DNA from: Chloroflexota bacterium
GTDB lineage: Bacteria; Chloroflexota; Dehalococcoidia; GIF9; AB-539-J10
Length of the DNA stretch: 64,000 nucleotides
Assembly: GCA_036834125.1 (NCBI GenBank)
Contig: DAITOK010000002.1
Span: forward strand, 49,382-113,381
Direction of reading: 5' to 3'
Shown piece by piece: positions 580-22,985 of this stretch. The translations under genes and the position numbers were made by a program. The notes under the pieces were generated by a model. It saw nothing but the letters and a program-made list of their open reading frames with translations, had not been told where the DNA came from and ran no database searches. Every line of letters begins with the position of its first letter. Position 1 is the first letter of the stretch.

Positions 580-599
580 AGCATCAACCTCCTTTTAGT

Positions 600-855: not shown

Positions 856-884
856 ATTATATCCATGGTACCGACCTTTGTCAA
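856..884 (-). promoter_or_regulatory. Consensus sigma70 promoter TTGACA-17-TATAAT
   Basis: Minus strand reads TTGACA aaggtcggtaccatgga TATAAT. Confidence 0.8.
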
Positions 885-907
885 TCACCTTCCCTTTTCC
901 TCTTTAA

Positions 908-938
908 TGTTAACAACCGAATGTTAAAATGCTGTTAA
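908..938. promoter_or_regulatory. Three TGTTAA direct repeats upstream of the -35 box; possible regulator site
   Basis: TGTTAA at 908, 922 and 933. Confidence 0.3.
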
Positions 939-981
939 GTTGCTCAGCCGGTACACAAAAAATCCAGGCATAGAGAAGACA

Positions 982-1011
982 GAAGGCGGCATCTTCTGCC
1001 GCTCCCTTCTC
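982..1011 (-). terminator. Probable intrinsic terminator after nadA
   Basis: GCGGCA/TGCCGC stem (987-992/998-1003), followed on the minus strand by a pyrimidine-rich run. Confidence 0.4.
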
Positions 1012-1077
1012 CAGATTGATTTTTTGGCTGGGCATTTTGGATGTGGTGCCGCTACGATGCAAAGCTAACAGAACGCG

Positions 1078-2034
1078 CTACTGCCCCATTTCGAGCATCC
1101 TGTCCACCGCAGCCTTAGCCTTAAGCTGAATTTCGTCGGGGACCTTCACCTGTGGCTGCATTTCCTGTAAAGCCCACAGTACCTTCTCGAGGGTGATGAG
1201 CTTCATATTGGGGCAGATCGCCTGCTCTGAAACAGGGATGAATTTCTTGCCCGGGTTTTCTTTCCTCAGGCGATGTATTATCCCGATCTCCGTGCCCACC
1301 ACCATCTCCCTGACCTCATCCCGCCGGGCATAGCGGCACATACCGCTGGTGCTGGCAACTTCGTCGGCCAGGGCGATGACTTCCGGTCGGCACTCGGGAT
1401 GCACGACCACCTTAGCCTGAGGATACTCCCGCTTCAACTCCTTTATCCTGTCCGGGGTTATCCGCACATGGGTGGGACAGAAGCCGGGCCAGAGAATCAT
1501 ATCCTTGCCCGTCTGGCTGGCGACATAATGGCCAAGGTACTGGTCGGGGACAAACAATATTTGTTCAGCCTTCAGGCTCTGCACGATTCTGACGGCGTTG
1601 GCAGAGGTGCAGCAGATATCCGATTCCGCCTTGACTTCCGCGGAGGAGTTGATGTAGCAGACGACCACAGCCTGGGGATGTTCCTTTTTCTTGGCTTGCA
1701 GGCGCTCAGGCGTAATCATATCCGCCAGTGGGCAGCCAGCGTTTATATCGGGCAGCAAGACCACTTTAGTGGGGCAGAGAATGGCGGCTGTTTCCGCCAT
1801 GAAGTGGACGCCGCAGAACACGATGACATCGGCGTTGGTTTTGGCGGCGTTCTGGCTCAGCTCCAACGAATCGCCCACAAAGTCGGCTATATCCTGAACC
1901 TCACCCAGTTGATAGTTATGGGCGAGGATGACAGCATTTCTTTTCCTCTTTAAGCCGATAATCTTTTCGGCTAGTTCTGCATCTCTATTTCTCATATCGT
2001 TGCTCGCTCCCGCCTCACAGAATACCTCAGCCAT
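1078..2034 (-). CDS. nadA: Quinolinate synthase A
   Basis: ILAHNYQ, FCGVHFMAE, AGCPLAD, YINSS, VHPEC and CPNMK motifs. True start may be 1995. Confidence 0.97.
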   Translation of the reverse strand: MAEVFCEAGASNDMRNRDAELAEKIIGLKRKRNAVILAHNYQLGEVQDIADFVGDSLELSQNAAKTNADVIVFCGVHFMAETAAILCPTKVVLLPDINAGCPLADMITPERLQAKKKEHPQAVVVCYINSSAEVKAESDICCTSANAVRIVQSLKAEQILFVPDQYLGHYVASQTGKDMILWPGFCPTHVRITPDRIKELKREYPQAKVVVHPECRPEVIALADEVASTSGMCRYARRDEVREMVVGTEIGIIHRLRKENPGKKFIPVSEQAICPNMKLITLEKVLWALQEMQPQVKVPDEIQLKAKAAVDRMLEMGQ

Positions 2035-3093: not shown

Positions 3094-4095
3094 TCACAGT
3101 TTGTGTATCACAGCAAAACAATAGCCTAAAGCTAGAGAGAGCGTGCAGATAACCAGCAGGTAAATAGCTAGAATCCTTCCCCCAAATTCCTTTCTGAGGA
3201 CGAGGATAGTTCCCCAGCTGGTGATGGGACCCACCAACAACAGCACCATCCCCGCCCCGATGTTCATGCCCTGCGACACGAGGGCGTGGACTAGTGGCAC
3301 GCTGGCAGTGGAGCAGATATACATGATCAACCCGAAGCCCAGGCTGAACAGATAGCCCAATCCTCCACCGAAATGAGTGCCCACGAACCTGCCCACTGGC
3401 GCCACTGCTGCTACCAGGGCGGCGAGAGCCAGACCCAGAAGCAATTCCGGTCCAATCTCCTTGACCATATCCACGAAGGCATATTTGAGCACATGCTTCA
3501 TCCTGTGGGCAAGCTGGCGGGAGCCTGCTATGTATTGCTCGGGATTATTTTCAAATGCTTCTTGGCAATGAGAACAGCAGAAGTAATAGGTTTCGCCACG
3601 GTATTCTGTGTTGGGTGACTTCTCCGTCTCCACGTTCATGCCACAAACGGGGTCGAGAGCCAGGTTGGCTGGTGGCACAAGGGCTTTCGCCTTCCCTGCC
3701 ACCATGTTCCCGACCAGCCCCATGACCAACCCCATAATTACTACAGCCAGGAAAATGAACAAGGTGAACTTCCATCCCAGGAGACCATAGGTGACGAGGA
3801 GAGCGCTTATGGAAGTGGCTGGTGTCGCCACCAAAAATGCCAGCACTGGCCCCAATCTTGCCCCTTTCTGTCGCAGGCTAACCGCCACGGGCAAGGAGCC
3901 GAAACAGCATAAAGGCAGGAGCGTGCCGATAATTGTGGAGTAAAGGATGGGCTTGACACCACCTCCGCCAAGATGTCTTTCCACCAGTCTGGAAGGAGCG
4001 AACTCGTGAATGATGCCACTCAACAGCAACCCTGCTGCCAGATAGGGCAACACCTCAACAAGATAATCTTTGAATACTGTGAAATACTGGAGCAT
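3094..4095 (-). CDS. Predicted permease (ArsP/DUF318/SO_0444-type) with YHS/TRASH metal-binding domain
   Basis: LPLCCFGSLPVA and YICSTASVP motifs; insert DPVCGMNV...YRGETYYFCCSHCQEAF. Start taken at ATG 4095. Confidence 0.85.
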   Translation of the reverse strand: MLQYFTVFKDYLVEVLPYLAAGLLLSGIIHEFAPSRLVERHLGGGGVKPILYSTIIGTLLPLCCFGSLPVAVSLRQKGARLGPVLAFLVATPATSISALLVTYGLLGWKFTLFIFLAVVIMGLVMGLVGNMVAGKAKALVPPANLALDPVCGMNVETEKSPNTEYRGETYYFCCSHCQEAFENNPEQYIAGSRQLAHRMKHVLKYAFVDMVKEIGPELLLGLALAALVAAVAPVGRFVGTHFGGGLGYLFSLGFGLIMYICSTASVPLVHALVSQGMNIGAGMVLLLVGPITSWGTILVLRKEFGGRILAIYLLVICTLSLALGYCFAVIHKL

Positions 4096-4311
4096 GTTGT
4101 GTCCTATTTTCCCATTTTTTAGCCTGTACAGCAACGCAGGTGGGAGACGGCTTCAGCCGATGTCTCTCTTGCTGGCGACCATTTGCCGCAGCCTGGCACG
4201 CAGAAGCACAGGTATGCCGCTTCCTGCTGCAGTTGCCCGTCCCGATACTTGGAGCCGGCCGTGACACAGCTAGACTTGCCGCAGCAACCAGGCTTATCTG
4301 GTGATGCGAAA

Positions 4312-4704
4312 TCAGCGTGCAGAAGATTTCCTCAAATAATCCGCAACAGCCGACTTGATGGCGTCCTCAGCCAGCACTGAGCAATGAACCTTGGGTGGCG
4401 GCAAGCCGCCCAGAGCATCGGCGACTTGTTGGTTTGTGATCTTCAGCACTTCGTCAATGGTTTTCCCCTTCATCAGCTCGGTAGCCATGGAGCCGCTGGC
4501 GATGGCTGCGCCACAACCCATCGTCCGGAATTTAGCATCAACTATGACACCGTCCCTCACCTTGATATAAAGTTCCATCGTGTCCCCGCAGACAGGGCTG
4601 CCGGCATGTCCGACGCCATCCGGATTCTCCATCTCACCGACATTGCGAGGGTTCTTGAAGTGTTCTATTACCTTGTCGCTATACTGTGCCCAGAGGTCAG
4701 TCAC
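4312..4704 (-). CDS. iscU: Fe-S cluster scaffold IscU/NifU
   Basis: YSDKVIEHFKNPRNVG, SPVCGD, GCGAAIAS and KVHCS motifs. Confidence 0.95.
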   Translation of the reverse strand: MTDLWAQYSDKVIEHFKNPRNVGEMENPDGVGHAGSPVCGDTMELYIKVRDGVIVDAKFRTMGCGAAIASGSMATELMKGKTIDEVLKITNQQVADALGGLPPPKVHCSVLAEDAIKSAVADYLRKSSAR

Positions 4705-4708
4705 TCGG

Positions 4709-5881
4709 TTAACTCCGATGTTGGGTTTTCAAGAGCGGGGACATGGCTCTCAATCTGGCGATGATCCCCGGCAGCACCTCAAGCACCCGGTCTATATCGG
4801 CTTGGGTGTTGTCCCGCCCTAGGGTAAGCCTGAGTGAGCCGTGGGCTTGCTCAGGAGGAAGCCCCAGCGCCAGGAGAACGTGGGAAGGCTCACGGCTTCC
4901 CGAGCTGCAAGCTGAGCCGGTGGAGGCACAGATGCCCTCCAGGTCCAGGTTCAAGAGCATGGATTCCCCTTCCACAAAATCAACGCTGATGTTGACGTTG
5001 TTGGGCAGCCTTCTTGTGGGGTGCCCATTCAGGCGGAGGTGGTCAACCTTCTCCTGAAGACCTTTGATCAGCTTGTCCCGAAGATAGGTCTGCCGTTTCA
5101 TTTCCTTGTCCATCTCCTGCCCCGCCAGCTCTGCTGCCTTGCCCAATCCTACAATGCCGGGCACATTTTCTGTGCCAGCCCTGCGCCCTGCCTCGTGTCC
5201 GCCGCCGTGAATGAGAGAGACTAGCCTGGTGCCTTTTCTTATATATAACGCTCCAATTCCCTTGGGTCCATAGCACTTATGTCCAGAAATGGACAGCAAG
5301 TCCACTTGCAGCTCATCCACATTCACCGGGATATGCCCTACCGTTTGCACAGCATCGGTGTGAAAATAGACGCCAGCTTCACGGGCGATTCTGCCTATTT
5401 CTGCCGCTGGCTGTATCGTCCCTACCTCGTTATTAGCATGCATGACCGAAATGAGAATAGTCTTATTGGTAATAGCTTTTCTGACATCGTTGGGGTCAAC
5501 GAGGCCGTACTTGTCCACGGGCACATACGTTACCCTGAATCCTCTTTTCTCGAGAAACTTACAGACCTCGAGCACTGCATGATGTTCCGCGACGCTGGTA
5601 ATGATGTGGTTTCCCTTGTGCTCATTAGCCAGGGCAACTCCTTTGAGGGCAAGATTGTTCGCCTCTGTTCCCCCGCTGGTGAAAACGACCTCCTCGCCTT
5701 GGGCACCGATAAGTTTCGCCACCTTGGCTCTAGCTTCTTCTACAGCCCGCCTTGTCTCTTGACCATAAGAATGGAGGCTGGAGGGGTTGCCGAAGGCGTT
5801 GCTGAAATAGGGGAGCATAGCCTTCACCACCTCGGGATAGGCTGGGGTCGTAGCAGCGTGGTCAAGATATATTCTGTGCAT
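4709..5881 (-). CDS. iscS: Cysteine desulfurase IscS/NifS
   Basis: [32 protein letters not shown] and STGSACSS motifs; start taken at ATG 5881. Confidence 0.96.
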
Positions 5882-6082
5882 TTCTACAGGCGTTGCTCCT
5901 TGCCGGCTTGCACCGAAAATACTGTAGCATTTTAGCACCCGTCTGCTCGCCTCACAAATGACGTGAAACAAGTTATAGAGGAAGAACCGAAGAACAAACA
6001 GCGAGTCTGCCAGTGACTATCCAGCGATGGCATTCAAGTTTTTCAAGTACATCATTAATGGAATCTTAATATTTTCATGCTA

Positions 6083-6091
6083 TGATATAAT
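6083..6091 (+). promoter_or_regulatory. Extended -10 element TGnTATAAT
   Basis: TGATATAAT about 57 nt upstream of the ATG at 6148. Confidence 0.5.
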
Positions 6092-6147
6092 CGGTTTTGC
6101 TTTGTGCCTTATCGTGAGAGCATTGCCATTGTGATAGAAGTAGATAA

Positions 6148-7734
6148 ATGATTAAGAAAGTCGTTTCCCTGGCAGTAGCGGCTCTCCTAGCTATAGGGCT
6201 GCTCCTGCCTGGCTGCACCGGTGAGCCGGCACTAACCCCGGTGCTCTATGTCTTTGAGGACGGGAAGATCAATATCGGTGTAGTGGGCGACCTAAATGCC
6301 ACGCTTGGCTCTATGCAGTGGAAGGGTGCCACGCTGGCTCAGGAAGCGGTGAATCGGAATGGCGGGGTAGACATAGGCGGAATAGGCTATGTTTTGGAGT
6401 TGGTTCCCATAGAAACTGGTGAGGAAACGGTGGACCCCAGTGGTTTGACCGGTTCGAAAAATCTCAGGGAGGCGATAGGGGAGATCGATTTCCTGCTTGG
6501 TGGTGCCCGAGCGGAAGCTGTGAAGGTCTATCGGGGTGTAGCCATGGAGAACGGGGTGATTTTCATCAATTGTGGTGTTGCCGCAGAGCTGTTACAGCGT
6601 AGCGTGGTTGATGATTATGCCGGTTATCGGTTCTGGTTCAAGGGGATGCCCTACAATGAGTATTTCCTGGGGCAGACTGTGGTCAGGATACTGGGAGCGG
6701 TGGCAATGAAGCTCAGACAGAAAATGGGGGTGGAAGCCAATTATACGCTAAATGCCACCATAATCGCTGATAATTTGCCCTGGGCTTACGACCAGGTGGT
6801 GATCATCACAGGTCTACTGGGCGGCATAAATGTGAACCTTGTGCGCAGCCCATTCTGGGTAGATCCAGCCGGCAATGTGCGGGCAATGGAGAGCATACTG
6901 AACTCCACAGCAGCCTTGGATCCCCAGTTTATCATCCCTTTGTTCTCTGGGAACGCCGGCGTTCTCTATGACAGGCTGCGCCGTTCTTATGTACCGAATG
7001 CTATGTCGGTAGGCATCAATATCATGGCGCAGCTTAAGAGCCCCTGGGGTGCTGGTAACCTTACTGCACCTCCACCCGATGGTCCAGGTTGTGCCTATGA
7101 AGTTCTACTGGACACCTGGGCAGAGGGATTGAACCAGACAACTAGGACGGCTGCTTTTCTGGCTGCGTTCATGAACTCCACTTCAGACGAGTACCCGCTG
7201 TATACCGCAGCTACCTATGACGCTATTTTTTGCCTTAAAGCGGCTATTGAAGCAGTGGCATGGTATGATGCACGAAAAGGGGTTGCCTGTGCCCGGGCTG
7301 ATGACATTATTCGATGGCTGGAAAACCCCGCCAATGCCCAGGTGACTACCACTGGCAATGTCACTTATTATCCCAGACCGGGAACCACAGCCATTGGAAA
7401 GCCAGCGCTCACGCAAGACCAGGTTCGCTCGCTGTACGACCTGGGTAGCTATAACGGGACATATACATATGACGGGAAGGATTGGATTGTTCCGCCGCAT
7501 ACTGCTCATGACCTTGTTTATGGTCCAGGACGCGTGACCGGCATTGGCGCCCAGTGGCAATGGAATAATGAGACCGGTCGCTGGCAGAAGGTGGGCGTCT
7601 GGCCTATGGATTCTGGTGACGAATACGACCAGGCATTGACCGACCAGTACGGCTGCTGGAATTTTGCTTATAACGGCACGAAGCCTCTGGTGATACCACA
7701 AAATGTAATTGACCACCACAAGCCGGCTAGCTAG
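6148..7734 (+). CDS. Orphan ABC substrate-binding lipoprotein (LivK/periplasmic binding protein type 1)
   Basis: Lipobox LLLPGC; KINIGVVG, GATLAQEAVN..GGV and YDAIFCLKAAIE motifs. No permease or ATPase gene adjacent. Confidence 0.8.
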   Translation: MIKKVVSLAVAALLAIGLLLPGCTGEPALTPVLYVFEDGKINIGVVGDLNATLGSMQWKGATLAQEAVNRNGGVDIGGIGYVLELVPIETGEETVDPSGLTGSKNLREAIGEIDFLLGGARAEAVKVYRGVAMENGVIFINCGVAAELLQRSVVDDYAGYRFWFKGMPYNEYFLGQTVVRILGAVAMKLRQKMGVEANYTLNATIIADNLPWAYDQVVIITGLLGGINVNLVRSPFWVDPAGNVRAMESILNSTAALDPQFIIPLFSGNAGVLYDRLRRSYVPNAMSVGINIMAQLKSPWGAGNLTAPPPDGPGCAYEVLLDTWAEGLNQTTRTAAFLAAFMNSTSDEYPLYTAATYDAIFCLKAAIEAVAWYDARKGVACARADDIIRWLENPANAQVTTTGNVTYYPRPGTTAIGKPALTQDQVRSLYDLGSYNGTYTYDGKDWIVPPHTAHDLVYGPGRVTGIGAQWQWNNETGRWQKVGVWPMDSGDEYDQALTDQYGCWNFAYNGTKPLVIPQNVIDHHKPAS

Positions 7735-9067: not shown

Positions 9068-9096
9068 TTGACGAGATATTTGATCTCGAGGATAGT
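9068..9096 (+). promoter_or_regulatory. Putative promoter TTGACG-17-GATAGT with overlapping inverted repeat CGAGAT-N5-ATCTCG
   Basis: Read directly at 9068-9096; inverted repeat at 9072-9088. Confidence 0.4.
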
Positions 9097-9159
9097 TGAA
9101 GGCTTCTTAAAGTGTTCGTCCCGGTGATAGATCAGGACTAAAAACGACAGAAGGCAAGA

Positions 9160-10368
9160 TTGGCTATGGCAAAAACGATAGCGGAAATCAACGAGAAAAT
9201 CAGGAAGGGCAAGGCAGTGGTGGTGACTGCCGAGGAAGTGATTGATATTGCTCAGAAGAGAGGTGTGAGCAGGGCAGCAGAGGAAATTGATGTCGTTACC
9301 ACTGGCACCTTCGGGCCCATGTGTTCTTCCGGTGTTTTCCTCAATATTGGACATTCCAAGCCGAGGATCAAGCTGGGTGGCGGCAAGGTCTACCTTAACG
9401 ATGTCCCTGTCTATACGGGCATAGCTGCTGTGGATCTTTTCCTGGGGGCAACCGCCATCCCCGATGACGACCCCAGGAATAAGCTCTATCCCGGGGAATT
9501 CAACTATGGCGGTGGGCATGTGATTCAGGAACTGGTCGCGGGAAAGGATATAAGGCTCACAGCTACGGCTTATGGGACAGACTGCTATCCCAGGAAGAAG
9601 CTGGAGACCCTGATCAACATCAAGGACATAAATGAGGCAATTCTGTTTAATATCAGGAATGCGTATCAGAACTATAATGTAGCTGTGAATCTATCTGATA
9701 GGGTTCTCTATAGCTATATGGGAGTGCTCAAGCCGAATCTGGGCAATGCTAACTATTGTTCGGCCGGACAACTCTCACCGCTTCTCAACGACCCTTATTA
9801 TAAGACCATGGGTGTAGGGACGAAGATATTTCTGGGTGGGGGGATAGGCTATGTAGCCTGGCACGGTACGCAGCATAACCCTTGTGCTCTGCGGGGTGAC
9901 AACGGGGTCCCGCGGCGGGGAGCGGGGACGCTGGCTGTGATCGGGGACTTGAAACAGATGAAGCCAGAGTGGTTGGTGGGGACAAGCATGCTCGGTTACG
10001 GTTGCACGCTCACCGTGGGCATAGGCGTTCCCATACCTATACTTTCCGAGGAAATTCTCCGTTATACTGCCGTGAGCGATGCTGATATCTTTGCTCCTGT
10101 TGTGGACTATGCTGAGGCTTATCCTCAGACGAAGCCAGATATCCTGGGCGAGGTTAGTTACGCCGAACTCAAGAGCGGTCGTATAAAAGTTCGGGGAAAG
10201 GATGTCCCCACCGCTTCCTTGTCCAGTTATCCCAAGGCGGTGGAAATTGCCAACATCTTGAAAAAGTGGATAGAAAGTGGAGAGTTTTTGCTTACCGAGC
10301 CTGTAGCCCCCCTGCCGGGAGTGGAATCTGGTGTGACAATCAAAGCACTTAAGGAAAGACCGATATGA
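9160..10368 (+). CDS. Homocysteine biosynthesis protein / L-aspartate semialdehyde sulfurtransferase (DUF39, MA1821-like, no CBS domains)
   Basis: KTIAEINEKI, VDVVTTGTFGPMCSSG, LNDPYYKT.G.GT.IFLGG and GTQHNP motifs. Confidence 0.9.
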   Translation: MAMAKTIAEINEKIRKGKAVVVTAEEVIDIAQKRGVSRAAEEIDVVTTGTFGPMCSSGVFLNIGHSKPRIKLGGGKVYLNDVPVYTGIAAVDLFLGATAIPDDDPRNKLYPGEFNYGGGHVIQELVAGKDIRLTATAYGTDCYPRKKLETLINIKDINEAILFNIRNAYQNYNVAVNLSDRVLYSYMGVLKPNLGNANYCSAGQLSPLLNDPYYKTMGVGTKIFLGGGIGYVAWHGTQHNPCALRGDNGVPRRGAGTLAVIGDLKQMKPEWLVGTSMLGYGCTLTVGIGVPIPILSEEILRYTAVSDADIFAPVVDYAEAYPQTKPDILGEVSYAELKSGRIKVRGKDVPTASLSSYPKAVEIANILKKWIESGEFLLTEPVAPLPGVESGVTIKALKERPI

Positions 10369-15779: not shown

Positions 15780-16550
15780 CTATTTGCCCGGCTCTGACTT
15801 ACTCCCTTTTTCCAAAAGGGGAGTCAGCATGTCAACAGGCAAAGGAAAGACGATAACGCTGCTTTTCTCTGTGGCGATGGTGGATAGCGTCTGTAAGTAA
15901 CGAAGCTGGAGCGCAGATGCCTGACTGGAAATAACTTTGGCAGCCTCAGCCAGTTTCTCTGCTGCTTGGTATTCACCCTCGGCATGAACCACCTTGGCTC
16001 TCCTCTCTCGCTCAGCCTCAGCTTGGGCAGCCATCGCCCTCTGCAGCGTCTGCGGCAACTGTAGCTCTTTGACCTCTACCATACTCACTTTTATGCCCCA
16101 AGGGTCCGTGCCTTGGTCTACTATCGCCCTTATCTTTTCGTTGAGCCTGTCCCGCTGGGCTAATAGCTCGTCCAGTGTGGATTGCCCGACAACATTTCGT
16201 AGAGTGGTCTGGGCAAGCAGCGAGGTTGCCTTGACATAGTCGAGCACCTTGAGTATAGCATCCGCGGCATTCACCACGCGAAAGTAAGCCACAGCATCAA
16301 CTCTGACGGTGACATTATCCACGGTAATGCACTCCTGCTGGGGGACATCCATGGTCACTATACGAAGGTCAACTTTTCGCACGGTCTCGATGAAAGGTAT
16401 GATCAATACCAAGCCTGGTCCCCTCAGCCCCACGAACCTGCCCAATCGGAAAACTCCCACCCTTTCATATTCTCGCACAACTTTGATAGCTGCCGACAGA
16501 AGAATTATTACTACTACTGCGATTGTGAAATAGATAAACGGGTAAATCAT
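15780..16550 (-). CDS. SPFH/band-7 (slipin, stomatin-like) protein
   Basis: N-terminal TM; FRLGR, DLR..T.DVP.QE.IT.DNV, WGIKV and ALQLRYLQTL motifs. Confidence 0.93.
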   Translation of the reverse strand: MIYPFIYFTIAVVVIILLSAAIKVVREYERVGVFRLGRFVGLRGPGLVLIIPFIETVRKVDLRIVTMDVPQQECITVDNVTVRVDAVAYFRVVNAADAILKVLDYVKATSLLAQTTLRNVVGQSTLDELLAQRDRLNEKIRAIVDQGTDPWGIKVSMVEVKELQLPQTLQRAMAAQAEAERERRAKVVHAEGEYQAAEKLAEAAKVISSQASALQLRYLQTLSTIATEKSSVIVFPLPVDMLTPLLEKGSKSEPGK

Positions 16551-16852
16551 TCTTCCTCCTTCTCTTTAAATTTTCTGGTCACCCACAGTGTCAGTCCTTC
16601 AACTTTGCTTATTATCACCTCCTCTCCAGGTTGTATTGTACTATCTTCAGCTATGGCTGTCCATAACTCCCCCTCAGCCAGGACTGTGCCTTTGGGATTG
16701 AGGATCGTTCGTGCCACAGCTTTCTTCCCTATCATCTCCTCGACACCAGCCGAAAGCCTTCGCCTCTGACCTTTGACGATCGCATAGATAACGAAGATGA
16801 TAAACGCGGCACCTACAACTATGGCGGCAATAATTGGGGCTGTCATCTGCAC
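16547..16852 (-). CDS. Short NfeD (C-terminal OB-fold) protein
   Basis: One TM, then G..G.V...GELW.A...I..GEEV....VEGL.L.V. Confidence 0.88.
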   Translation of the reverse strand: MQMTAPIIAAIVVGAAFIIFVIYAIVKGQRRRLSAGVEEMIGKKAVARTILNPKGTVLAEGELWTAIAEDSTIQPGEEVIISKVEGLTLWVTRKFKEKEEE

Positions 16853-16863
16853 GCTGCTACCCT

Positions 16864-18180
16864 TTATTCCATTGACTTCTTCGCCACCCGTAGTTTCAAT
16901 CCCTCTACCCTGGTCACCACCACTTCTTCACCCGCTGCTACTCTACCACTCTCTGATGTCGCTGCCCACAGTTCTCCTTGAGTTAAAACTGTGCCAGTTG
17001 GGTCGAGAGGAGTCTTGGCTATGCCTATCGTCCCAACCATTCCCTCAGGTCCGGTGGCCTTGCGTCGCCTCTGGCTGCGGATGATGGCGCCCAGGACAAA
17101 GATAGCGAAGGCGGTGAAGCCTACTGCCACGCCAGCAACCAACCTCCTGTCTACCTCTATTCCAGGACTGTGGCTAAACAATATGAGGGAACCTATGACC
17201 AGGGCAACTATGCCCCCAGCAGTTAATAGCCCAAAGCCGGTGGTGAAATACTCGGCGATAAAAAGCACTACAGCCAGCAAGATGAGAGCTATGCCGCCCC
17301 AGTAAGCATTAAGTACGCCCAGGGAGTAAAACGCCAGGAGCAAGCTGATGCCCCCTACTACTCCTGGGATAATCAACCCTGGATTGGAAATCTCAGTAAT
17401 CAGCCCAATCGTAGCTAAAGCAAACAGGATATAGGCAACATTGGGGTCGCTGATGGTTTGCAGGAATTTTTCAACGGCATTCATTTCGTTTCTGGTTGTA
17501 CCATAGCTCGTGGTATCAATGGTAACTTCCGTGCCACTGGCTAGAGTGACCTTCCAGCCATTGATTTGGGAAATAAGGCTTTCCAGACTCTCCGCTCGCA
17601 GGTCGATAAGGTCACTTTCTAAGGCATCAACATCGGTGAACGATTTACTTTGCGTAACCGCCAGCTCAGCTTCTTCCATATTGCGGCCACGCTCCTCAGC
17701 TATCGTTTTCATCCACTTAGCCGCGAACTCAACTATTTTTTTCATCTGGTCTTCGGGTATTTCCTGTCCTCCAGCAGCCACAGGATGGGCAGCGCCGATA
17801 GTCGTGCCCGGCGTCATCGCCGCTATATGAGCCGATAGAGTGATGAAAGTTCCCGCTGAGGCAGCCCAGGCGCCTTTGGGTGAGACGTAAACCACAATGG
17901 GCACATTGGCGTTCATAATCCTCTGGACTATCTTCTCGGTGGAGTCCAGAAGCCCACCTGGGGTATCTAGCTCAATTATGCAGACACTAGCGCCATTCTT
18001 CTCTGCCTGACTGATGCCCCGGTCAATGTAGTCAGCTATCACAGGCACGATGATACCCTCCACGGTAAGAACTTCCACAGTGGTAGGGCTGGCAGCAGCG
18101 AGCAAACTGCCTGCTAAACCCGCAACTATGGGAATCACCAGCAAGGCCAGGAAGAAAATCCTGAGTCCAGTTCTCAGCAT
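16864..18180 (-). CDS. nfeD: Long NfeD membrane serine protease (ClpP-class)
   Basis: Signal peptide; DTPGGL, AASAGTFI and PGTTIGAAHPV motifs; TM region; C-terminal OB fold. Confidence 0.92.
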   Translation of the reverse strand: MLRTGLRIFFLALLVIPIVAGLAGSLLAAASPTTVEVLTVEGIIVPVIADYIDRGISQAEKNGASVCIIELDTPGGLLDSTEKIVQRIMNANVPIVVYVSPKGAWAASAGTFITLSAHIAAMTPGTTIGAAHPVAAGGQEIPEDQMKKIVEFAAKWMKTIAEERGRNMEEAELAVTQSKSFTDVDALESDLIDLRAESLESLISQINGWKVTLASGTEVTIDTTSYGTTRNEMNAVEKFLQTISDPNVAYILFALATIGLITEISNPGLIIPGVVGGISLLLAFYSLGVLNAYWGGIALILLAVVLFIAEYFTTGFGLLTAGGIVALVIGSLILFSHSPGIEVDRRLVAGVAVGFTAFAIFVLGAIIRSQRRRKATGPEGMVGTIGIAKTPLDPTGTVLTQGELWAATSESGRVAAGEEVVVTRVEGLKLRVAKKSME

Positions 18181-18535
18181 CTAGGATTATCCTCAAGCTT
18201 ATAGGAATTCAGATTCCCACCTTTTCTCCTCCCATTCAGTATTATAGCCGATTCTGCTGAAACCAAACAAATGTTCCTCACCCTAAACGGCAAACTTGAT
18301 TATGTTATTCACCTGCTTACCGGAAATGGGCACAAGTCAGTTAGTGAGCTAGCAAAACTGAGGAATTGGTTAGAGATGCATTGCTAACAAGATTAGGAAC
18401 GGGATGTGAGTCATGAAGAGAATGACACCAAGTTTGCTCCGAACATCTTCTTTCGTCCAAGCGGAAAGAATAATTTCTTATCAGGTTTAAAAAGCTGGGA
18501 AAACTTCGGGTAATTCAGGTCATGGCTGTGACTAA

Positions 18536-18681
18536 CTAAAGTCAGTACAAGAGATAATTTGCCACACTCATACCAATCACTATAGCTCCTATAATTATTC
18601 TAATAATTTTAGAATATTTAATGGCAATATTAAACTAACACACACCGCTATCATAATAATGCGAAAGGTGCTCTGAGACAT
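18536..18681 (-). pseudogene. Frameshifted tandem copy of the 58-aa membrane protein gene
   Basis: Same upstream motif and SD; ATG TCT CAG AGC ACC TTT. A 34-nt shortfall relative to the intact copy shifts frame; the downstream frame reads FNIAIKYSKIIRIIIGAIVIGMSVANYLLY*. Confidence 0.75.
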
Positions 18682-18779
18682 TCAAAGATACCTCCCTCAG
18701 CTTAATTAATTAAAGATTAATAGAGGCGGTTTTTCCATTCAGATCAAGCTGGGTTAATGATGAGATTCAATGTGGCCAA

Positions 18780-18956
18780 CTAAAATGAGTACAAGAGTAA
18801 TCTGACAGCCATACCAAGCAGTACAATTGCTACAATCATTTTTATAATTTTAGCATATTTATCGGCAATATTAAACCTTTGATAAGGGAAAAGAACAGAA
18901 ATAATGAATATAAACGACACCACAAGTAAAATGATACTAAAGGTCTTGAAAGACAT
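18780..18956 (-). CDS. 58-aa two-TM membrane protein; candidate immunity protein
   Basis: Not in ORF track. SD GGAGG 9 nt upstream; MSFKTFSIILLVVSFIFIISVLFPYQRFNIADKYAKIIKMIVAIVLLGMAVRLLLYSF*. Confidence 0.7.
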   Translation of the reverse strand: MSFKTFSIILLVVSFIFIISVLFPYQRFNIADKYAKIIKMIVAIVLLGMAVRLLLYSF

Positions 18957-18989
18957 TCAATTTCGCCTCCATCAGCTTAATTTAATCGA

Positions 18990-19018
18990 GGGGTTTATTA
19001 TAACAAAAAATAAACCCC
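18990..19018 (-). terminator. 10-bp perfect hairpin GGGGTTTATT/AATAAACCCC after the secreted protein gene
   Basis: Read directly; the minus strand also carries TATAAT at the loop/stem junction. Confidence 0.55.
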
Positions 19019-19034
19019 CTCATAAATTATTTTG

Positions 19035-19748
19035 TTATTGAGACCATATACCGGTAGGGACAACTGGTGGTAATGGTGGTGGCATATAATGGAACCTTAT
19101 TATAACCCCTCTCCCGTATACATTTGTGGCCATTATAGTCGACGCCATCCCCGCTAAGGCAATACAAACTACTTTGGAAACTACTGGATCTGGAATAATC
19201 AAGGCTATTGCTGAACCAAAGTATAAGCCCGCACAAATCCTAATACAGAGGGCATTATCCAAATAAAGATGAAACCCCCACCAGTGCCATACAACTTTAG
19301 TTACACCTGAATAGGATAAGGTTTGAACCCCTTCTACCAAGTAAACGGCATTGCCTTCAGCTATTAATTGCTGCCCCGGTTCCAAGTATTGATTGCAATC
19401 TTCTAGGTATTTCTCTGTAACAGTAAGTGTAAAGTCGGGATTGGCTACCATGTATCCACTATCAATCATCGAGTTTGTTTGTTCCAGTCCTGCCAATAAT
19501 GATTGATGTACTTCGCTGTTAATACTTTTGACTACCCCCTTCGGTGCATTCAACACGATATTGCCGGTCTCTGAGATTGATAAATAACGTTCCAGCTTGT
19601 TTATGGCGCTGGTGTATTCACGTTCAATCCTGGAACCGGGCAGAGGATTATCAGGTTGTTTTGCAGCAAGCGCCGGCTGTGCGACCAAAGCCATCGCAAC
19701 AATAACCATTAACATAATAGTTAGAACTCTTAGGCACGGTTTCCTCAT
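19035..19748 (-). CDS. Secreted protein, candidate large non-lytic bacteriocin/toxin
   Basis: Sec signal MRKPCLRVLTIMLMVIVAMALVAQPALA; acidic N-domain; C-domain VVWHWWGFHLYL followed by a hydrophobic hairpin with Cys. Start 19748 (alternative 19766). Confidence 0.7.
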   Translation of the reverse strand: MRKPCLRVLTIMLMVIVAMALVAQPALAAKQPDNPLPGSRIEREYTSAINKLERYLSISETGNIVLNAPKGVVKSINSEVHQSLLAGLEQTNSMIDSGYMVANPDFTLTVTEKYLEDCNQYLEPGQQLIAEGNAVYLVEGVQTLSYSGVTKVVWHWWGFHLYLDNALCIRICAGLYFGSAIALIIPDPVVSKVVCIALAGMASTIMATNVYGRGVIIRFHYMPPPLPPVVPTGIWSQ

Positions 19749-19905
19749 TTCTTTTAATCCTTTCATTATTTGTTTTAATTAGTCTTCCACTCCAAGCCAT
19801 CGCCTCCTTTTTTTGCCTCAGATATTTGTAATAACTATTGGAGTTAATTGTGATTGTATCAACCATATAAGAATAACACTTTTGAGCAGCAATGTCCATA
19901 CCTCG

Positions 19906-19950
19906 TATTAATTAATTAATATGTAACTATACTCAACCATACTTAACTAT
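19906..19950. promoter_or_regulatory. 16-bp palindrome TATTAATTAATTAATA plus three phased 10-mer repeats
   Basis: Palindrome at 19906-19921; ATGTAACTAT/ACTCAACCAT/ACTTAACTAT at 19921-19950. Confidence 0.45.
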
Positions 19951-20304
19951 GTTATGGATATACGATTTTACTGGCTCGGCCAAGAGTAAGATTGATTTAA
20001 CCCGCTTTAGTCTTCCGGTATAAGCATACTTGGTCAAATAGCCTGATAAAGCTAGTAAACGGCGATTTCCATAAATCTCAGGTTAATGCTAAACCAAGGG
20101 GCTGAAAGCAACAAAAATTCAAAGTTCATCATTGAAGCTGGGCACAGCTTAGTGTAGAATAGGCTAAGTTATTCGAAGAATGTTGCCTTTTTGTTGGAAA
20201 GCCCAAGAAGCGAGCTCGGTTTCAAGACGGGCTTGGCTTACCACCAAAATCAAAAGATTTTGGTGAACGTGAAAGTTCTACGAATTTTGGAGAGTGATCG
20301 AGAA

Positions 20305-21549
20305 ATGACAAACCAAAAATGTAAGGGAATGCGAGATTTGCTTCCTGAGGATATGCTGCGCTTTCGCTGTATTGAAGATGTTTTCCGTAGCTGTTGTCGT
20401 AGCTGGGGCTATCAGGAGGTAAAAACACCCACCCTGGAATTTCTTTACCTGTTTACAGCTGCAGGCACGCTGACGCCGGGTATGTTGAGCAAAGTCTATT
20501 CCTTTTTAGATTGGGATGGCTGGAGTGGCGAGCGGGTCGTCCTGAGGCCAGATGGTACTATTCCTGTAGCGAGACTCTACATTGATAATCTGAGTGGACA
20601 GGAGTTAGCCAGGCTTTTCTATGTGACGAATATTTTTGCTTTCGAAGGAACCGGGAAAGAGAACCGGGAGCGCTGGCAATGTGGTGCTGAGTTCTTCGGC
20701 GGTGCCAAATTCGCTGCGGACGTGGAGATAATTCTCTTAGCTAAGGAAATCATTCGCAAGTTGGGCGTCAATAATGTTGAGTTGCAGCTGTCGCATGCTG
20801 GCTTGGTGAGAGCATTGGTCAAAGAGTTGAAGCTTGGCGCTGATGAGGAAGCTGCAGTAACACACAGCGTTTTAGAAGGTGATTGGCGGGCATTGACCAA
20901 AGCAAAGTCTGCCAGTCCCGAATTTAGCAAGCTTCTGGGTGCGCTCTTGAATCTCAAAGGGAGGTCGAGCAATTTTCTGCACAATATCAGAGCTTCGTTT
21001 CCCAAAGCCTCGAATGACTTTAAGTCCAGCGTGGCAGACCTCATAAACGTGACCGCACTACTGGATAGTGTGGATTGTGCTTATGAAATTGATATTGGAA
21101 CGATACACGGCTTTGAATATTACACCGGAGTTTGTTTCCAGTTCCTGGCTACTGGGGAGAAGGTAGGTGGTGGAGGAAGGTATGACAAGCTCGTGCCACT
21201 TATGAACGGGAAAGAAATCCCCGCTTGTGGATTTGCCCTATATGTGGACCCCCTCATGAGAATGCTGCCACCCCAGGAAGAGAAACAGAATGGGCTTGCA
21301 ATCCTAGTTAAAGGTAGAGAGTTGACGCCCGAAACAGTAAGATTAAGTTTTAGGCTAGCGGAATCGCTTCGCAGTGCTGGCTACATCACGGAACTGGATT
21401 TTGCCGACCGCGAAGGATCCAGCTATAGGTGGGTTATTGTAGTTTCAGGCAAAGAACCCTCTCCATTTATGCTTAAGGATTGTCTACAGAAGCGACGGCG
21501 AGAAGTAGCTTCCACCACCGAGGTTCTTAAAGCCCTGAGCGAGGGATGA
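20305..21549 (+). CDS. hisZ: ATP phosphoribosyltransferase regulatory subunit (HisRS-like)
   Basis: KGMRDLLP, LRPDGTIPVAR, EYYTG and GGGRYD motifs; HisRS catalytic Args are replaced (FAFE, VDPL); heads the his operon. Start taken at ATG 20305. Confidence 0.85.
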   Translation: MTNQKCKGMRDLLPEDMLRFRCIEDVFRSCCRSWGYQEVKTPTLEFLYLFTAAGTLTPGMLSKVYSFLDWDGWSGERVVLRPDGTIPVARLYIDNLSGQELARLFYVTNIFAFEGTGKENRERWQCGAEFFGGAKFAADVEIILLAKEIIRKLGVNNVELQLSHAGLVRALVKELKLGADEEAAVTHSVLEGDWRALTKAKSASPEFSKLLGALLNLKGRSSNFLHNIRASFPKASNDFKSSVADLINVTALLDSVDCAYEIDIGTIHGFEYYTGVCFQFLATGEKVGGGGRYDKLVPLMNGKEIPACGFALYVDPLMRMLPPQEEKQNGLAILVKGRELTPETVRLSFRLAESLRSAGYITELDFADREGSSYRWVIVVSGKEPSPFMLKDCLQKRRREVASTTEVLKALSEG

Positions 21550-22985
21550 AGGATTATCAAGACCGCACTATCAAAATTGCCCTTCCCAAGGGCAGATTTC
21601 TGTCGCCTACTGCCAACATGCTTGCTGAGATAGGCTTAGAATTTGAAGGTTATAGCAGCGATGCCAAGCAATATCGCCTTAGCTCGAAAAAACTTTCCAG
21701 CGTTTCTGCCAAGATACTTCAGGAGAAAGATATACCTATACAGGTAGCAGTTGGAAATTACGACCTGGGTATTTGTGGCTTGGATTGGATTGAGGAATTT
21801 GTGGTGAAGTATCCTACCGGTGCCTTAGTAAAGGTATCAAGTCTAAACTATGGTGAAGGGGGTATATATGTCGCTACCAGTTCTCTATCCGGGATAGCCA
21901 ATCTTGCTGACTTATCAACCCAGAGAAGGGATTACCGCATAGTTAGCGAGTATCCTAATCTAGCTGAAGCTTTTGCCTTGAAACGCAGGATTAGAAAATT
22001 CCGGATTTTCCCGGTGTGGGGAGCTGCTGAGGCTTATCCCCCGGAAAACGCTGACTTGGCAGTGTTCTGGGGAAAGGATGGAGCATATGTAGCAGCTCGA
22101 GGCTTACTCCCCCTCAAAAAATTGCTTTCTGTTACTGCCTTTCTGATAGCCAACCGAGAAAGCTTGGAGAGTAAAGACCTTAGCGACATATTAGCATGCT
22201 TTAGCTCACAGCTTACCGTTGACTTGCGGACATCGGAAGAGAATGAGAGTGATATATTTAGAGAGCTGAAGATTTATGACATTCCTTGGTCAGCAAAAGA
22301 AATAAATCTGGCCTTGCCCGATGGGCACCAACAATCGCCGACTGTGCAATTTTTGAAACGAGCCGGGCTCGTATTTGATGGCTATTCTGAAAAAGTAGTG
22401 AGCCGTCGTCCTTCTGCTGAGTTAGAGTGGCTGGGCGTTAAAGTGATCAGACCTCAAGATATGCCTCAACAAGTAGCAAATGGGAATTTTGATTTAGCCA
22501 TAACAGGTGAGGATTGGCTGCTGGATCATCTCTATCGCTTCCCTGCTAGCCCGGTGGAGAAGTTACTTACCCTGGGTTTTGGCACTGTCAAGGTCGTGGC
22601 TGCTGTGAGCCAGGAAATGCCTGTAAACAACATTGATGATTTAAGGGTGCTTATCCAGAAAAACCCTGAGCTAATTAAGTCACCTTTGAAGGTGGCCTCC
22701 GAGTACACAAATATCGCCGATAAGCACCTTAGAGACAATCACATTCACCCCTACAAGTTAATCCCAACCTGGGGGGCAAGCGAGGCATTTTTGCCTGATG
22801 ATGCCGATATGCTCATTGACAACACTCAGACGGGGAAAACTCTCAAACAGCACAAATTAAAGATTATTGATGAAATTTTCCAGTCCTCGGCTTGCCTGAT
22901 TGCTAACAAGAATAGTCTGATGTCTTCGGACAAGAAGGACAAGGTAGAGTTACTGACACAGAAATTGCGAGCAGCCTTAGAATGA
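21546..22985 (+). CDS. hisG: ATP phosphoribosyltransferase with two tandem short-form HisG domains
   Basis: KIALPKG...QEKDIPIQVAVGNYDLGICGLDW, repeated as NLALPDG...RPQDMPQQVANGNFDLAITGEDW...DMLIDNTQTGKTL. Confidence 0.9.
   Translation: MKDYQDRTIKIALPKGRFLSPTANMLAEIGLEFEGYSSDAKQYRLSSKKLSSVSAKILQEKDIPIQVAVGNYDLGICGLDWIEEFVVKYPTGALVKVSSLNYGEGGIYVATSSLSGIANLADLSTQRRDYRIVSEYPNLAEAFALKRRIRKFRIFPVWGAAEAYPPENADLAVFWGKDGAYVAARGLLPLKKLLSVTAFLIANRESLESKDLSDILACFSSQLTVDLRTSEENESDIFRELKIYDIPWSAKEINLALPDGHQQSPTVQFLKRAGLVFDGYSEKVVSRRPSAELEWLGVKVIRPQDMPQQVANGNFDLAITGEDWLLDHLYRFPASPVEKLLTLGFGTVKVVAAVSQEMPVNNIDDLRVLIQKNPELIKSPLKVASEYTNIADKHLRDNHIHPYKLIPTWGASEAFLPDDADMLIDNTQTGKTLKQHKLKIIDEIFQSSACLIANKNSLMSSDKKDKVELLTQKLRAALE

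Follow-up and report, generated by a model that had tools for sequence, protein, structure and literature searches.

A low-GC cassette in a Dehalococcoidia genome encodes a putative Sec-exported toxin of a previously unannotated protein family and its candidate membrane immunity protein

Gene content of the low-GC island

The window analyzed here, a 64,000-nucleotide stretch of a Dehalococcoidia contig, contains an island of low G+C content located between nfeD (positions 16864 to 18180, minus strand; Pfam domains NfeD1b_N, NfeD_membrane, and NfeD) and hisZ (positions 20191 to 21549, plus strand; Pfam domain tRNA-synt_His), whose real start, judging from the alignment with the syntenic locus L010, is near position 20305. 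The sharp GC drop between these two genes, noted in the initial annotation, was borne out: the segment from 18601 to 18660 contains exactly 13 G+C, and the island represents the G+C minimum among all 2010-bp segments (mean, 0.487; standard deviation, 0.028; minimum at 18201). The island carries a cassette that consists of a large gene, a conserved intergenic stem-loop, an intact small gene, and a small pseudogene (Table 1) and adjoins the nfeD/stomatin membrane-scaffold operon. An Rfam search over the whole window gave no match, and promoter and terminator scans remained at the chance level. A conserved 47-aa open reading frame (ORF) on the opposite strand was considered as a possible remnant of the MarR genes that flank other cassettes, an idea that was rejected because the two show no similarity.

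Table 1. Features of the island (window positions; residues are those of the 243-aa ORF)
Feature	Position	Strand	Details
Low-GC island holding the cassette	18181..20190	.	38.2% G+C versus 48.8% for the whole window
Pseudogene of a second, other-type small gene ("..MSVANYLLY," as in L015 and L019)	18542..18681	-	34-bp frameshifting deletion
Small gene, 58-aa two-helix membrane protein, candidate cognate immunity protein	18780..18956	-	helix dG, -3.8 and -0.3
Conserved stem-loop in the intergenic region (GAGGGGGTTTATT...AATAAACCCCTC)	18988..19021	-	predicted fold
Large gene, 243-aa two-domain protein with a Sec-type signal	19035..19766	-	from the ORF list; stop codon, 19035-19037
Variable basic C-domain, residues 151-243	19038..19316	-	pI 9.0; 5' edge at sharp nucleotide breakpoints
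Helical hairpin, residues 171-214	19125..19256	-	helices 171-190 and 194-214 in the model
Acidic N-domain, residues about 44-125, alpha/beta	19392..19637	-	pLDDT 96-98; pI 4.8
Sec-type signal peptide, residues 1-34	19665..19766	-	read from the sequence; predicted cleavage between ALA and AK

The exported two-domain protein

The large gene, counted from its first ATG, contains all the peptide strings quoted in the initial annotation; its true start is probably M7 (position 19748), which is kept in the homologues. As read from the sequence, its N terminus has the typical n-h-c layout of a predicted Sec-type signal, with MRKPCLR followed by a hydrophobic core (summed Hessa dG, -1.6) and by AQPALA in front of the AK that would begin the mature protein. 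This layout is conserved in homologues; A34 is invariant in the alignment A1, and its conservation exceeds 90% in A3. The mature protein would have a mass of ~22.8 kDa and a length of ~210 aa.

The AlphaFold model of this protein is confident (pLDDT, 88; pTM, 0.79) and has an alpha/beta fold with 10 strands. The acidic character of the N-domain, as reported initially, was confirmed, and the C-domain is basic. In the secondary structure of the model, the C-domain consists of a beta-hairpin (WWGF..YL), two long semi-hydrophobic helices, and another beta-hairpin (GVIIRF...GIWSQ), with the strands before and after the helical hairpin sharing a single sheet; the C-terminal Gln is kept in 138 of 163 family members. 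The two hairpin helices lie above the Kyte-Doolittle threshold for membrane helices, their summed Hessa dG values (+0.7 and +2.8) are marginal for membrane insertion, and one of the corresponding helices in a B-type homologue has a negative dG. On average, these helices carry about one charged residue, and the loop between them is Pro-rich, has a net charge near 0, and does not show the enrichment in K/R that a resident membrane hairpin should have. The mature protein does contain the four cysteines that had been assigned to the C-domain, but only three of them are located there, the fourth being residue 123, and no Cys column is conserved in either A1 (29 sequences) or A3 (84 sequences).

The small gene, the pseudogene, and the stem-loop

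The initial annotation listed several tiny genes with two transmembrane segments downstream of the large gene. One such gene, coding for the 58-aa protein, is intact, but the second copy is broken. The intact gene is preceded by a conserved TTAAATTAAGCTGATGGAGG ribosome-binding region, and the central loop of its product has a net charge of +3. Across the loci, the small proteins consist of 49 to 60 aa that form two helices and are 17 to 88% identical to each other; unlike the hairpin of the large protein, they combine strongly hydrophobic helices with a positively charged central loop. Outside its deletion, the pseudogene is near-identical over most columns to the small genes of L019 and L015, and it is also detected by tblastn. 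The single small gene of L010 aligns to both window copies.

The intergenic region between the large and small genes has a predicted folding energy of about -19 kcal/mol. The stem-loop is present with nearly the same sequence in 10 other loci and is also found behind orphan gene fragments in L013 and L025; its sequence is too uniform across the loci for covariation testing.

A family without functional annotation

The large protein has 32 close homologues and belongs to a family of 665 representative clusters at E of <=1e-3, for which there is no functional annotation and no Pfam or NCBIfam model. Neither the large nor the 58-aa protein has a significant match in Pfam, NCBIfam, or PADLOC, and the source annotations of the family members retrieved in the profile search read "hypothetical protein," aside from a name derived from CarboxypepD_reg that is attached to the long forms. 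Foldseek runs with two models, including the confident one, returned no solved PDB structure at E of <1. Relatives occur in Dehalococcoidia metagenome-assembled genomes (MAGs), from which two of the Dehalococcoidia-type loci come; the family spans Chloroflexota and Bacillota, and sequence features suggest its presence in Bacteroidota and Actinomycetota as well.

All C-domains of the family are homologous and thus represent variants of one fold. Only N98 and G220 are invariant across 84 diverse members, while W162, G164, and Q243 are conserved in more than 90%; none of the invariant positions is a catalytic-type residue. Some members are long forms with a CarboxypepD_reg domain and a further domain or domains behind the C-domain, some carry a lipoprotein signal, and others (P0163, P0094, and P0119; 133 aa) consist of just a signal peptide and the C-domain. 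Since such minimal variants exist, the C-domain is the likely core module of the family.

A viral origin of the family was rejected, as there are no relatives among 2.9 million viral contigs and no structural match in BFVD. The INPHARED phages contain no relatives either, and the only PHROGs match was that of the B-type homologue P0022 to phrog_30375, a group of unknown function (E = 1.8e-11 over the full profile).

Joint exchange of C-domains and small genes

In 19 of 20 distinct loci, the large gene is directly followed by a same-strand two-helix ORF of 49 to 60 aa that is homologous to the small gene of the window; these loci come from varied contexts and phyla, including Dehalococcoidia MAGs, Gottfriedia acidiceleris, an Oscillospiraceae MAG, and a 5-Mb genome. 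The widespread P0070 lineage, which adjoins mreBCD-pbp2 at a conserved chromosomal position in more than 100 assemblies, has no small ORF downstream. In all eight other loci tested, the G+C content of the cassette is 3 to 10 points under that of its flanks, and the genomic setting shifts from one relative to another. The cassettes of L001, L022, and L023 are located among genes encoding ArdC-N, HTH_17 (excisionase-type), KlcB-like, and PHROG-matching proteins, and gene calls (with no PHROGs scan of the neighbors) identified no phage or mobile-element genes next to the cassettes of the window, L003, L008, L010, and L026.

Comparison of the Dehalococcoidia-type loci shows that the N-domain is conserved and that the predicted C-domain and the small gene have been exchanged together at sharp breakpoints. 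Among 15 cassettes of this type, pairwise identity is 44 to 93% in the N-domain and 23 to 81% in the C-domain, and nucleotide identity falls from 90 to 100% to 10 to 57% at about nucleotide 320 to 370, where the N-domain ends. The proteins of L025 and L003 are 88% identical in the N-domain and 31% identical in the C-domain, with 31% identity of the small proteins; for L025 and L014, the respective values are 76%, 81%, and 88%, and for L021 and L003, they are 93%, 39%, and 52%. In six reciprocal pairs, the nearest neighbor by the C-domain is also the nearest by the small protein. At L010, which has the same hisZ-cassette-nfeD order, the flanks are 75 to 81% identical to those of the window and the C-domain is not alignable. 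Global covariation was set aside as the main argument: in Mantel tests, the small protein correlates with the C-domain (r = 0.48) significantly but equally so with the N-domain (r = 0.66), and because the test does not discriminate between the two domains, the case for exchange rests on the specific recombinant pairs.

Several loci also carry orphan modules. In L013, a C-terminal fragment that is 50% identical to residues 198 to 229 of P0028 directly follows the large gene and is itself followed by the stem-loop. L025 contains an orphan 3' end (coding for ..NRNNTGVKIRINYVPFPPFLVPTGIWSQ and a stop), then the stem-loop, and then two more small genes; this stretch as a whole is 89% identical to the DNA of L008, and the two loci share an upstream regulator gene. 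Extra small-gene copies of another type are found in 6 of 16 loci, intact in L006, L008, L013, L019, and L025 and as a pseudogene in the window. C-domains exchanged with their small genes, orphan fragments, and small genes that are supernumerary or decayed make up the pattern of polymorphic toxin/immunity loci.

A putative membrane-targeting toxin and its immunity protein

The best explanation for the island is that it carries a cassette of the toxin/immunity type whose protein family had not been annotated before. With no more than moderate confidence, we propose that the large protein is a Sec-exported, membrane-targeting toxin and that the small protein is its cognate membrane immunity protein. 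The action of the toxin would probably be non-enzymatic, as there are no conserved catalytic residues. According to this proposal, the exported protein would fold with its helical hairpin shielded and reach a neighboring cell, where the C-domain would insert the hairpin into the cytoplasmic membrane and either dissipate the membrane potential or block a membrane target. The small protein, probably oriented with a cytoplasmic loop and external termini, would bind the hairpin of the cognate C-domain inside the membrane and thereby protect the producer, and the extra copies of the small gene would guard it against toxins made by relatives. The toxin reading is favored by the conservation of the cassette, the joint exchange of C-domain and small gene, the orphan modules, the minimal C-domain variants, the marginal hydrophobicity of the hairpin, and the neutral loop, as well as by the low G+C content of every cassette tested and the occurrence of some copies among mobile-element-like genes; the ionophore toxins described below, with their two-helix immunity proteins, offer a functional precedent. 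Against it stand the absence of homologues among the known toxin and immunity families, the P0070 lineage with its missing small ORF, the extra domains behind the putative toxin domain of the long forms, the single fold shared by all C-domains, in place of unrelated toxin folds, the Mantel statistics, the Kyte-Doolittle values of the hairpin, and the glycine-zipper motif that is no commoner than in shuffled sequences. In polymorphic toxins, the toxic domain usually comes last.

The main alternative, though rather unlikely, is a resident envelope complex in which the large protein would be anchored by its hairpin in the membrane of the producer, with the 58-aa protein as an obligatory membrane partner. 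The N-domain and the beta-sheet would then be outside, in a structural, sensory, or adhesive role, and the sequence variation would reflect co-evolving transmembrane interfaces. With hairpin helices above the Kyte-Doolittle threshold and a negative dG for one B-type helix, Sec could indeed leave the protein in the producer membrane. In the model, the shared sheet on both sides of the hairpin fits a topology with both ends on the same side of the membrane, CarboxypepD_reg extensions behind the C-domain fit an out-in-out arrangement, and the conserved chromosomal position of the P0070 lineage, as well as the proximity of the window cassette to the nfeD/stomatin operon, points in the same direction. 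However, the intact other-type small genes that are kept after replacement of the matching C-domain (L025, L008, and L019) and the persistence of orphan C-terminal fragments are left unexplained by an obligate-partner model. The 133-aa variants would be anchors with nothing to anchor, and those with a lipoprotein signal need no second anchor. The charge pattern of the hairpin and the shifting genomic location of the cassette, including mobile-element-like regions, also argue against a resident complex.

A function on behalf of a mobile element or prophage is less probable still, whether in superinfection exclusion, in lysis or release with a holin-like small protein, or as some other cargo unrelated to antagonism. 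The phrog_30375 match of P0022, the neighborhoods of L001, L022, and L023, and the generally low G+C content are in line with such a role, and many holins are built as small two-helix proteins. The absence of relatives from the viral contigs and INPHARED phages and of phage or mobile genes next to five of the cassettes, the window cassette among them, speaks against it; moreover, holins seldom co-vary with a partner domain or build arrays of different types, and the large protein, having its own Sec signal, needs no holin.

Finally, the initial annotation likened the large protein to the non-lytic large bacteriocins streptococcin A-M57 (SA-M57), enterococcin EntV (EF1097), and corynicin JK, and membership in this group, including dysgalacticin, is highly improbable, as it is contradicted by both the fold and the disulfide, despite general traits in common (a Sec signal, which is a prediction for the present protein, a size of ~17 to 22 kDa, and an N-part that is acidic next to a C-part that is basic). 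Dysgalacticin, which perturbs the membrane potential, also has a membrane-associated immunity factor, DysI (PMC8308785). EntV, by its published description, has an all-alpha seven-helix "clasping palms" fold, seen in its crystal structure, and requires a disulfide and cleavage by GelE (PMC9562342), whereas the present family is alpha/beta and has no conserved Cys. When all PDB sequences were searched with phmmer and with the family profile, the best E value was 0.46 and there was no hit to EntV (assumed to be present there); tblastn searches with P0055 against plasmids and phages and with P0022 against phages found nothing; and no Sec-type YpkK candidate was identified among the annotated or long ORFs of plasmid pKW4. 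With Foldseek likewise negative for both models, homology to EntV, SA-M57, or corynicin is unsupported by these PDB, plasmid, and phage searches and was rejected. What survives of the original antagonism idea, on comparative evidence, is an exported protein with a candidate membrane immunity protein on a low-GC island, but not the resemblance to the named bacteriocins.

Comparison with known toxin systems

Like the polymorphic toxins (WapA/WapI, CdiA-CT/CdiI, and Rhs; Zhang et al. 2012, PMC3482391), the present family combines a conserved N-part with a variable C-part that is exchanged by recombination, has a small gene directly downstream that travels with the C-part, and leaves orphan C-fragments and extra small genes downstream; export by a plain signal peptide also has a parallel in some of their classes, such as the Sec-dependent WapA/WapI. 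The differences are that the present protein is very small, has no repeats or filament, lacks sequence relationship to the catalogued toxin and immunity domains, and does not follow the scheme of an extreme C-terminal toxin with many unrelated folds on one N-region, having C-domains of one fold and, in some members, further domains behind the variable one.

The ionophore toxins of contact-dependent growth inhibition (CDI) systems have a five-helix bundle that is delivered by CdiA/CdiB across the outer membrane via an entry domain and pair with small (72 to 100 residues), highly polymorphic two-helix CdiI proteins, whose termini are predicted to be cytoplasmic and which protect only against the cognate toxin (PMC11630599). 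The two systems would be similar in using a non-enzymatic, membrane-directed effector that comes in divergent types (20 to 39% identity there and 23 to 81% here), if the role proposed for the present protein is correct, and in having a very small, hydrophobic, polymorphic two-helix hairpin as the partner, which is a likeness of kind and not of descent. In contrast to the CDI ionophores, the present domain consists of two helices and a beta-sheet and is exported via Sec, there are no CdiA/CdiB genes nearby, and the small protein is shorter, with its positive loop predicted to be cytoplasmic.

Pore-forming colicins have ten-helix all-alpha pore domains, are released by a lysis protein, and are imported through the Tol or Ton systems. 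They share with the proposed mechanism a shielded hydrophobic hairpin that inserts into the target membrane, an integral-membrane immunity protein, and domain shuffling; unlike the colicins, which are all-alpha and not released via Sec, the present family has neither a sequence nor a fold match to them.

The type VII glycine-zipper toxins TelE, EsxX, and TspA depolarize membranes and are countered by membrane-bound immunity proteins (PMC12744356). A C-terminal helical region that is rich in small residues and would act on the membrane from outside is a common trait, and so are membrane-embedded immunity proteins, which in those systems also occur as orphans in non-producers; the LXG N-domains, type VII export, and polytopic immunity proteins set them apart. 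The idea of a glycine-zipper toxin (as in TelE, EsxX, and Tse4) was dropped, as the motif on which their toxic helix depends, (G/A/S)xxxGxxxG or GxxxGxxx(G/S/T), does not occur in the window protein; across the family, the motif is found in 66 of 163 members (40%) versus 37% of shuffled C-domains, which is no enrichment.

Implications

Dehalococcoidia occur abundantly in sediments, are difficult to grow in culture, and matter for organohalide respiration and for carbon cycling in the subsurface. A literature search yielded no described interbacterial weapon for the uncultured sediment members of this class. As a tentative extension of the toxin/immunity reading, to which we give somewhat less than an even chance, the window cassette could be the founding example of a large superfamily of putative Sec-exported, non-enzymatic, membrane-targeting toxins that adopt an alpha/beta fold matched by no solved structure, are each neutralized by a cognate two-helix immunity protein of ~55 aa, and serve as a main means of strain-level antagonism in these organisms. 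If true, this would extend the known repertoire of bacterial antagonism by a novel toxin fold and by a very small toxin/immunity pair (~210 aa and ~55 aa) that depends on Sec export alone, provide a function for a family that comprises at least 665 sequence clusters and now has none, and open a first concrete way to study competition among Dehalococcoidia. Should the cassette instead encode an envelope complex, it would still represent a two-protein membrane module that is conserved, lacks annotation, and has a fold without a match, but it would be of more modest interest. The natural recombinants, in which one N-domain is joined to different C-domains with matching small proteins, constitute a ready specificity matrix.

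A low-GC island with a two-gene cassette

The stretch between nfeD and hisZ is a real compositional island: G+C content at 18181-20190 is 38.2%, versus 48.8% in the whole window, and is the minimum among all 2-kb windows (mean, 0.487; SD, 0.028). This bears out the sharp GC drop reported in the initial annotation, including its count of exactly 13 G+C in 18601-18660. The large gene of the island encodes a 243-aa protein that contains all the peptide strings quoted in that annotation. As for the tiny genes for proteins with two transmembrane segments, also proposed there, one is an intact ORF of 58 aa, and the second copy has proved to be a pseudogene.

Features of the island, its flanks and related loci
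Locus	Feature	Position	Strand	Remark
Window	Stomatin-type operon, complete	15780-18180	-	Adjoins island; syntenic with L010
Window	nfeD	16864-18180	-
Window	Small ORF on opposite strand	18271-18415	+	Between decayed small gene and nfeD
L010	Same ORF	about 9070-9215	reverse	47 aa, MFLILNSKLDYVIHLLTGNGHKPVSELVNMEELVRDELLTRLGTGCES
Window	Second small-gene copy	18542-18681	-	34-bp frameshifting deletion
Window	Small gene	18780-18956	-	Two strongly hydrophobic helices
Window	Stem-loop	18988-19021	-	Stem about 11-15 bp, GAGGGGTTTATTAT...ATAATAAACCCCTC
Window	Large gene	19035-19766	-	243-aa ORF
Window	Frame overlapping large-gene start	19651-19899	-	Internal ATG near 19807
Window	hisZ, annotated ORF	20191-21549	+	True start probably near 20305
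Window	ORF at HisG position	21546-22985	+	479 aa (488 aa in L010)
L003	ABC-2 permease and ATPase gene pair	4815-6360	-	Just past decayed MarR gene
L003	Decayed tandem MarR regulator	7061-7566	-	Fragments
L008	Tandem MarR gene	6486-7583	-	Two units, 365 aa, divergent
L025	Tandem MarR gene	397-1494	-	Two units, 365 aa, divergent
L006	Long-form large gene	3546-4958
L020	Long-form large gene	1471-2859
L027, L028, L029	P0070 gene	6001-6768		255 aa

The stem-loop between the two genes is almost invariant in sequence and is also found in the related loci L003, L006, L008, L010, L012, L013, L015, L019, L020, L021, and L025. It has no T-run on its 3' side and is followed by a conserved ribosome-binding region, TTAATTAAGCTGAnGGAGG, which precedes each copy of the small gene. 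The stem-loop could be an attenuator, an mRNA stabilizer, or a recombination anchor. In a second group of cassettes, only 8 to 19 nt separate the genes, and there is no stem-loop.

The predicted exported protein and its family

The large protein starts with a typical Sec-type leader (MRKPCLR, a hydrophobic core, and AQPALA/AK), in line with the signal assigned earlier; since the methionine at position 7 is kept in homologues, translation probably begins at 19748. The mature protein (about 22.8 kDa) has an N-domain that is acidic, as previously claimed (pI 4.8), and a basic C-domain (pI 9.0); none of its four cysteines is conserved across the family. An AlphaFold model built with 84 diverse sequences is a confident single body (pLDDT 88, pTM 0.79), in which an alpha/beta N-domain (residues about 44 to 125) is followed by two beta-hairpins, the long helices 171-190 and 194-214, and two closing strands. 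Foldseek returned no PDB match to the model at E < 1 and no BFVD match at E < 0.3.

Neither the large nor the small protein matches a curated family in Pfam, NCBIfam, or PADLOC, and neither the large protein nor the profile of its relatives matches PDB sequences. A word-indexed search retrieved 32 relatives, each of them labeled "hypothetical" and derived from a metagenome or MAG; an exhaustive HMM search extended this to 665 representative clusters at E <= 1e-3 (150 at E <= 1e-10), and the last profile search yielded no informative annotation. The named sources are Dehalococcoidia MAGs, an Oscillospiraceae MAG, and the Bacillaceae species Gottfriedia acidiceleris. Some other members have signals of lipoprotein type or an amino-acid composition reminiscent of high-GC organisms, which suggests that the family may also occur in further phyla.

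The C-domain is the sole part present in all members, and there are variants that consist of a signal peptide and the C-domain only, one of them just 133 aa long. Long forms of 327 to 470 aa (P0009, P0018, P0025, P0028, P0193 to P0196, and the products of the L006 and L020 genes) have a CarboxypepD_reg domain after the conserved C-terminal Q, and those of 453 to 470 aa carry yet another domain without a Pfam match ("GGGGCPFLQVWDGSEYVDEGLL...").

Linkage and genomic context

In 19 of 20 distinct related loci with enough sequence, the large gene is followed in the same orientation by a two-helix ORF of 49 to 60 aa. These include Gottfriedia (50 aa, 19 nt 3' of the large gene), the Oscillospiraceae MAG (54 aa, uncalled), and a 5-Mb genome (56 to 60 aa). 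The cassette lies 3 to 10 points below its flanks in GC at all 8 further loci tested, and its surroundings differ between loci. In L010 and its near-duplicates, the order is hisZ-cassette-nfeD, syntenic with the window. A tandem-duplicated MarR gene, whose product may regulate the cassette, is found upstream of it in L008 and L025; the window has no copy. P0070, a family member found unchanged in more than 100 assemblies, is always encoded with mreBCD-pbp2 on one side and a peptidase M55 gene on the other, and no small two-helix ORF lies nearby in L027, L028, or L029.

Modular exchange

We compared 15 nonredundant Dehalococcoidia-type cassettes, 2 from Dehalococcoidia MAGs and the others from metagenome contigs. 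Mean identity is 68% for the N-domain, 40% for the C-domain, and 42% for the small protein. Judged by their identities, three pairs show co-inheritance of the C-domain and the small protein, independent of the N-domain: L025 versus L003 (N-domain, 88%; C-domain, 31%; small protein, 31%), L025 versus L014 (76%, 81%, and 88%), and L021 versus L003 (93%, 39%, and 52%). Global Mantel statistics are significant and are not relied on, because they do not separate C-domain from N-domain effects. At the end of the N-domain, nucleotide identity falls from 90 to 100% to 10 to 57% within about 50 nt; the signal-peptide region, of two types, is a third exchangeable module.

The upstream regulator (91% nucleotide identity) and the N-domain are common to L025 and L008; the C-domain of L025 differs and comes with a small gene of its own. 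Behind that gene, L025 retains an orphaned 3' end from a C-domain of B type ("..NRNNTGVKIRINYVPFPPFLVPTGIWSQ*"), then the conserved stem-loop and two more intact small genes, a stretch with 89% identity to its counterpart in L008. In L013, an orphan C-terminal fragment directly 3' of the large gene precedes the stem-loop. Extra small genes of a type unlike the first occur in 6 of 16 loci, with intact extras in five; the decayed extra copy in the window belongs to the type paired with the C-domain of L015 and L019. Between L010 and the window, the flanks are 75 to 81% identical and the C-domain is not alignable. By analogy, such exchange with orphan remnants is the pattern known from polymorphic toxin loci, where C-terminal displacement reportedly leaves orphan modules.

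Possible function

With the domain layout, the export signal (as read from the sequence), tight small-gene linkage, modular exchange, and orphan retention established, we lean, by a modest degree, toward a toxin/immunity cassette. The C-domain, which no member lacks, would be the effector, with the cytoplasmic membrane as its site of action; the small protein would be its cognate immunity factor. Since no catalytic-type residue is conserved across the 84 diverse members, the alignment argues for binding or pore-type action, not an enzyme. The two C-domain helices are marginally hydrophobic (summed dG, +0.7 and +2.8), with on average about one charged residue each and a Pro-rich loop of no net positive charge. 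Those of the small protein are strongly hydrophobic (dG, -3.8 and -0.3), and their central loop, with a net charge of +1 to +5, is therefore predicted to be cytoplasmic, with both ends outside. A hairpin inserting from outside would adopt the same topology, which would allow side-by-side packing of the two within the membrane.

Functionally, the nearest precedent is the CDI ionophore family: its toxins are very divergent, and each is neutralized solely by its cognate CdiI protein, which is polymorphic and has two helices (PMC11630599). Pore-forming colicins are another, as are the type VII toxins TspA, EsxX, and TelE, which have membrane-bound immunity proteins (PMC12744356).

The main alternative, a resident membrane complex, appears distinctly less probable. 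The hairpin is hydrophobic enough on the Kyte-Doolittle scale, and in some B-type proteins also on the Hessa scale, for Sec to integrate it; the extra domains that follow the C-domain in long forms fit an out-in-out topology, and the widespread P0070 lineage beside mreBCD-pbp2 does without a small gene. However, small genes of nonmatching type are still intact after C-domain replacement, C-domain-only proteins occur, a second anchor would be superfluous in variants with a lipoprotein signal, and the cassette is mobile.

A role in a mobile element, for example in exclusion or lysis, has weak support and is improbable. In L001, L022, and L023, the cassette lies among ArdC-N, excisionase-type HTH, and PHROG-matching genes, and the PHROG matched by one B-type homologue has no known function; no relatives were found in 2.9 million viral contigs or, by tblastn, in INPHARED phages (P0055 and P0022) or PLSDB plasmids (P0055). 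Membership in the SA-M57/EntV family, in line with the resemblance to streptococcin A-M57, EntV, and corynicin proposed in the initial annotation, is contradicted by the fold and by the disulfide and is very improbable. A glycine-zipper toxin was dropped when the motif test failed.

The logic of an exported polymorphic toxin with a membrane immunity protein is known in kind; the family libraries and literature searched contain no description of the protein family, its fold, or the very compact arrangement of two genes. We know of no described antagonism system in Dehalococcoidia. The family is large and without functional annotation, and its natural recombinants offer a ready-made experimental design.

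Neighboring genes

The frame at 19651-19899 has a strong Shine-Dalgarno sequence (AAAGGAGG) 2 nt upstream of its internal ATG and overlaps the large-gene start in another reading frame; given its poor conservation in L008 and L012, it is probably not a gene. The opposite-strand small ORF is kept in L010; about 29 codons in, a 1-nt difference puts the window copy out of frame. The 47-aa product does not resemble the MarR genes beside other cassettes. The stomatin-type operon encodes a long NfeD (438 aa), a short NfeD (101 aa), and a 256-aa band-7/stomatin protein, assigned from the Pfam match of the syntenic L010 gene. Downstream of hisZ, the ORF at the HisG position, identified through the PF01634 annotation in L010, is about twice the size of short-form HisG, the usual partner of HisZ, and looks like a tandem duplication or fusion.
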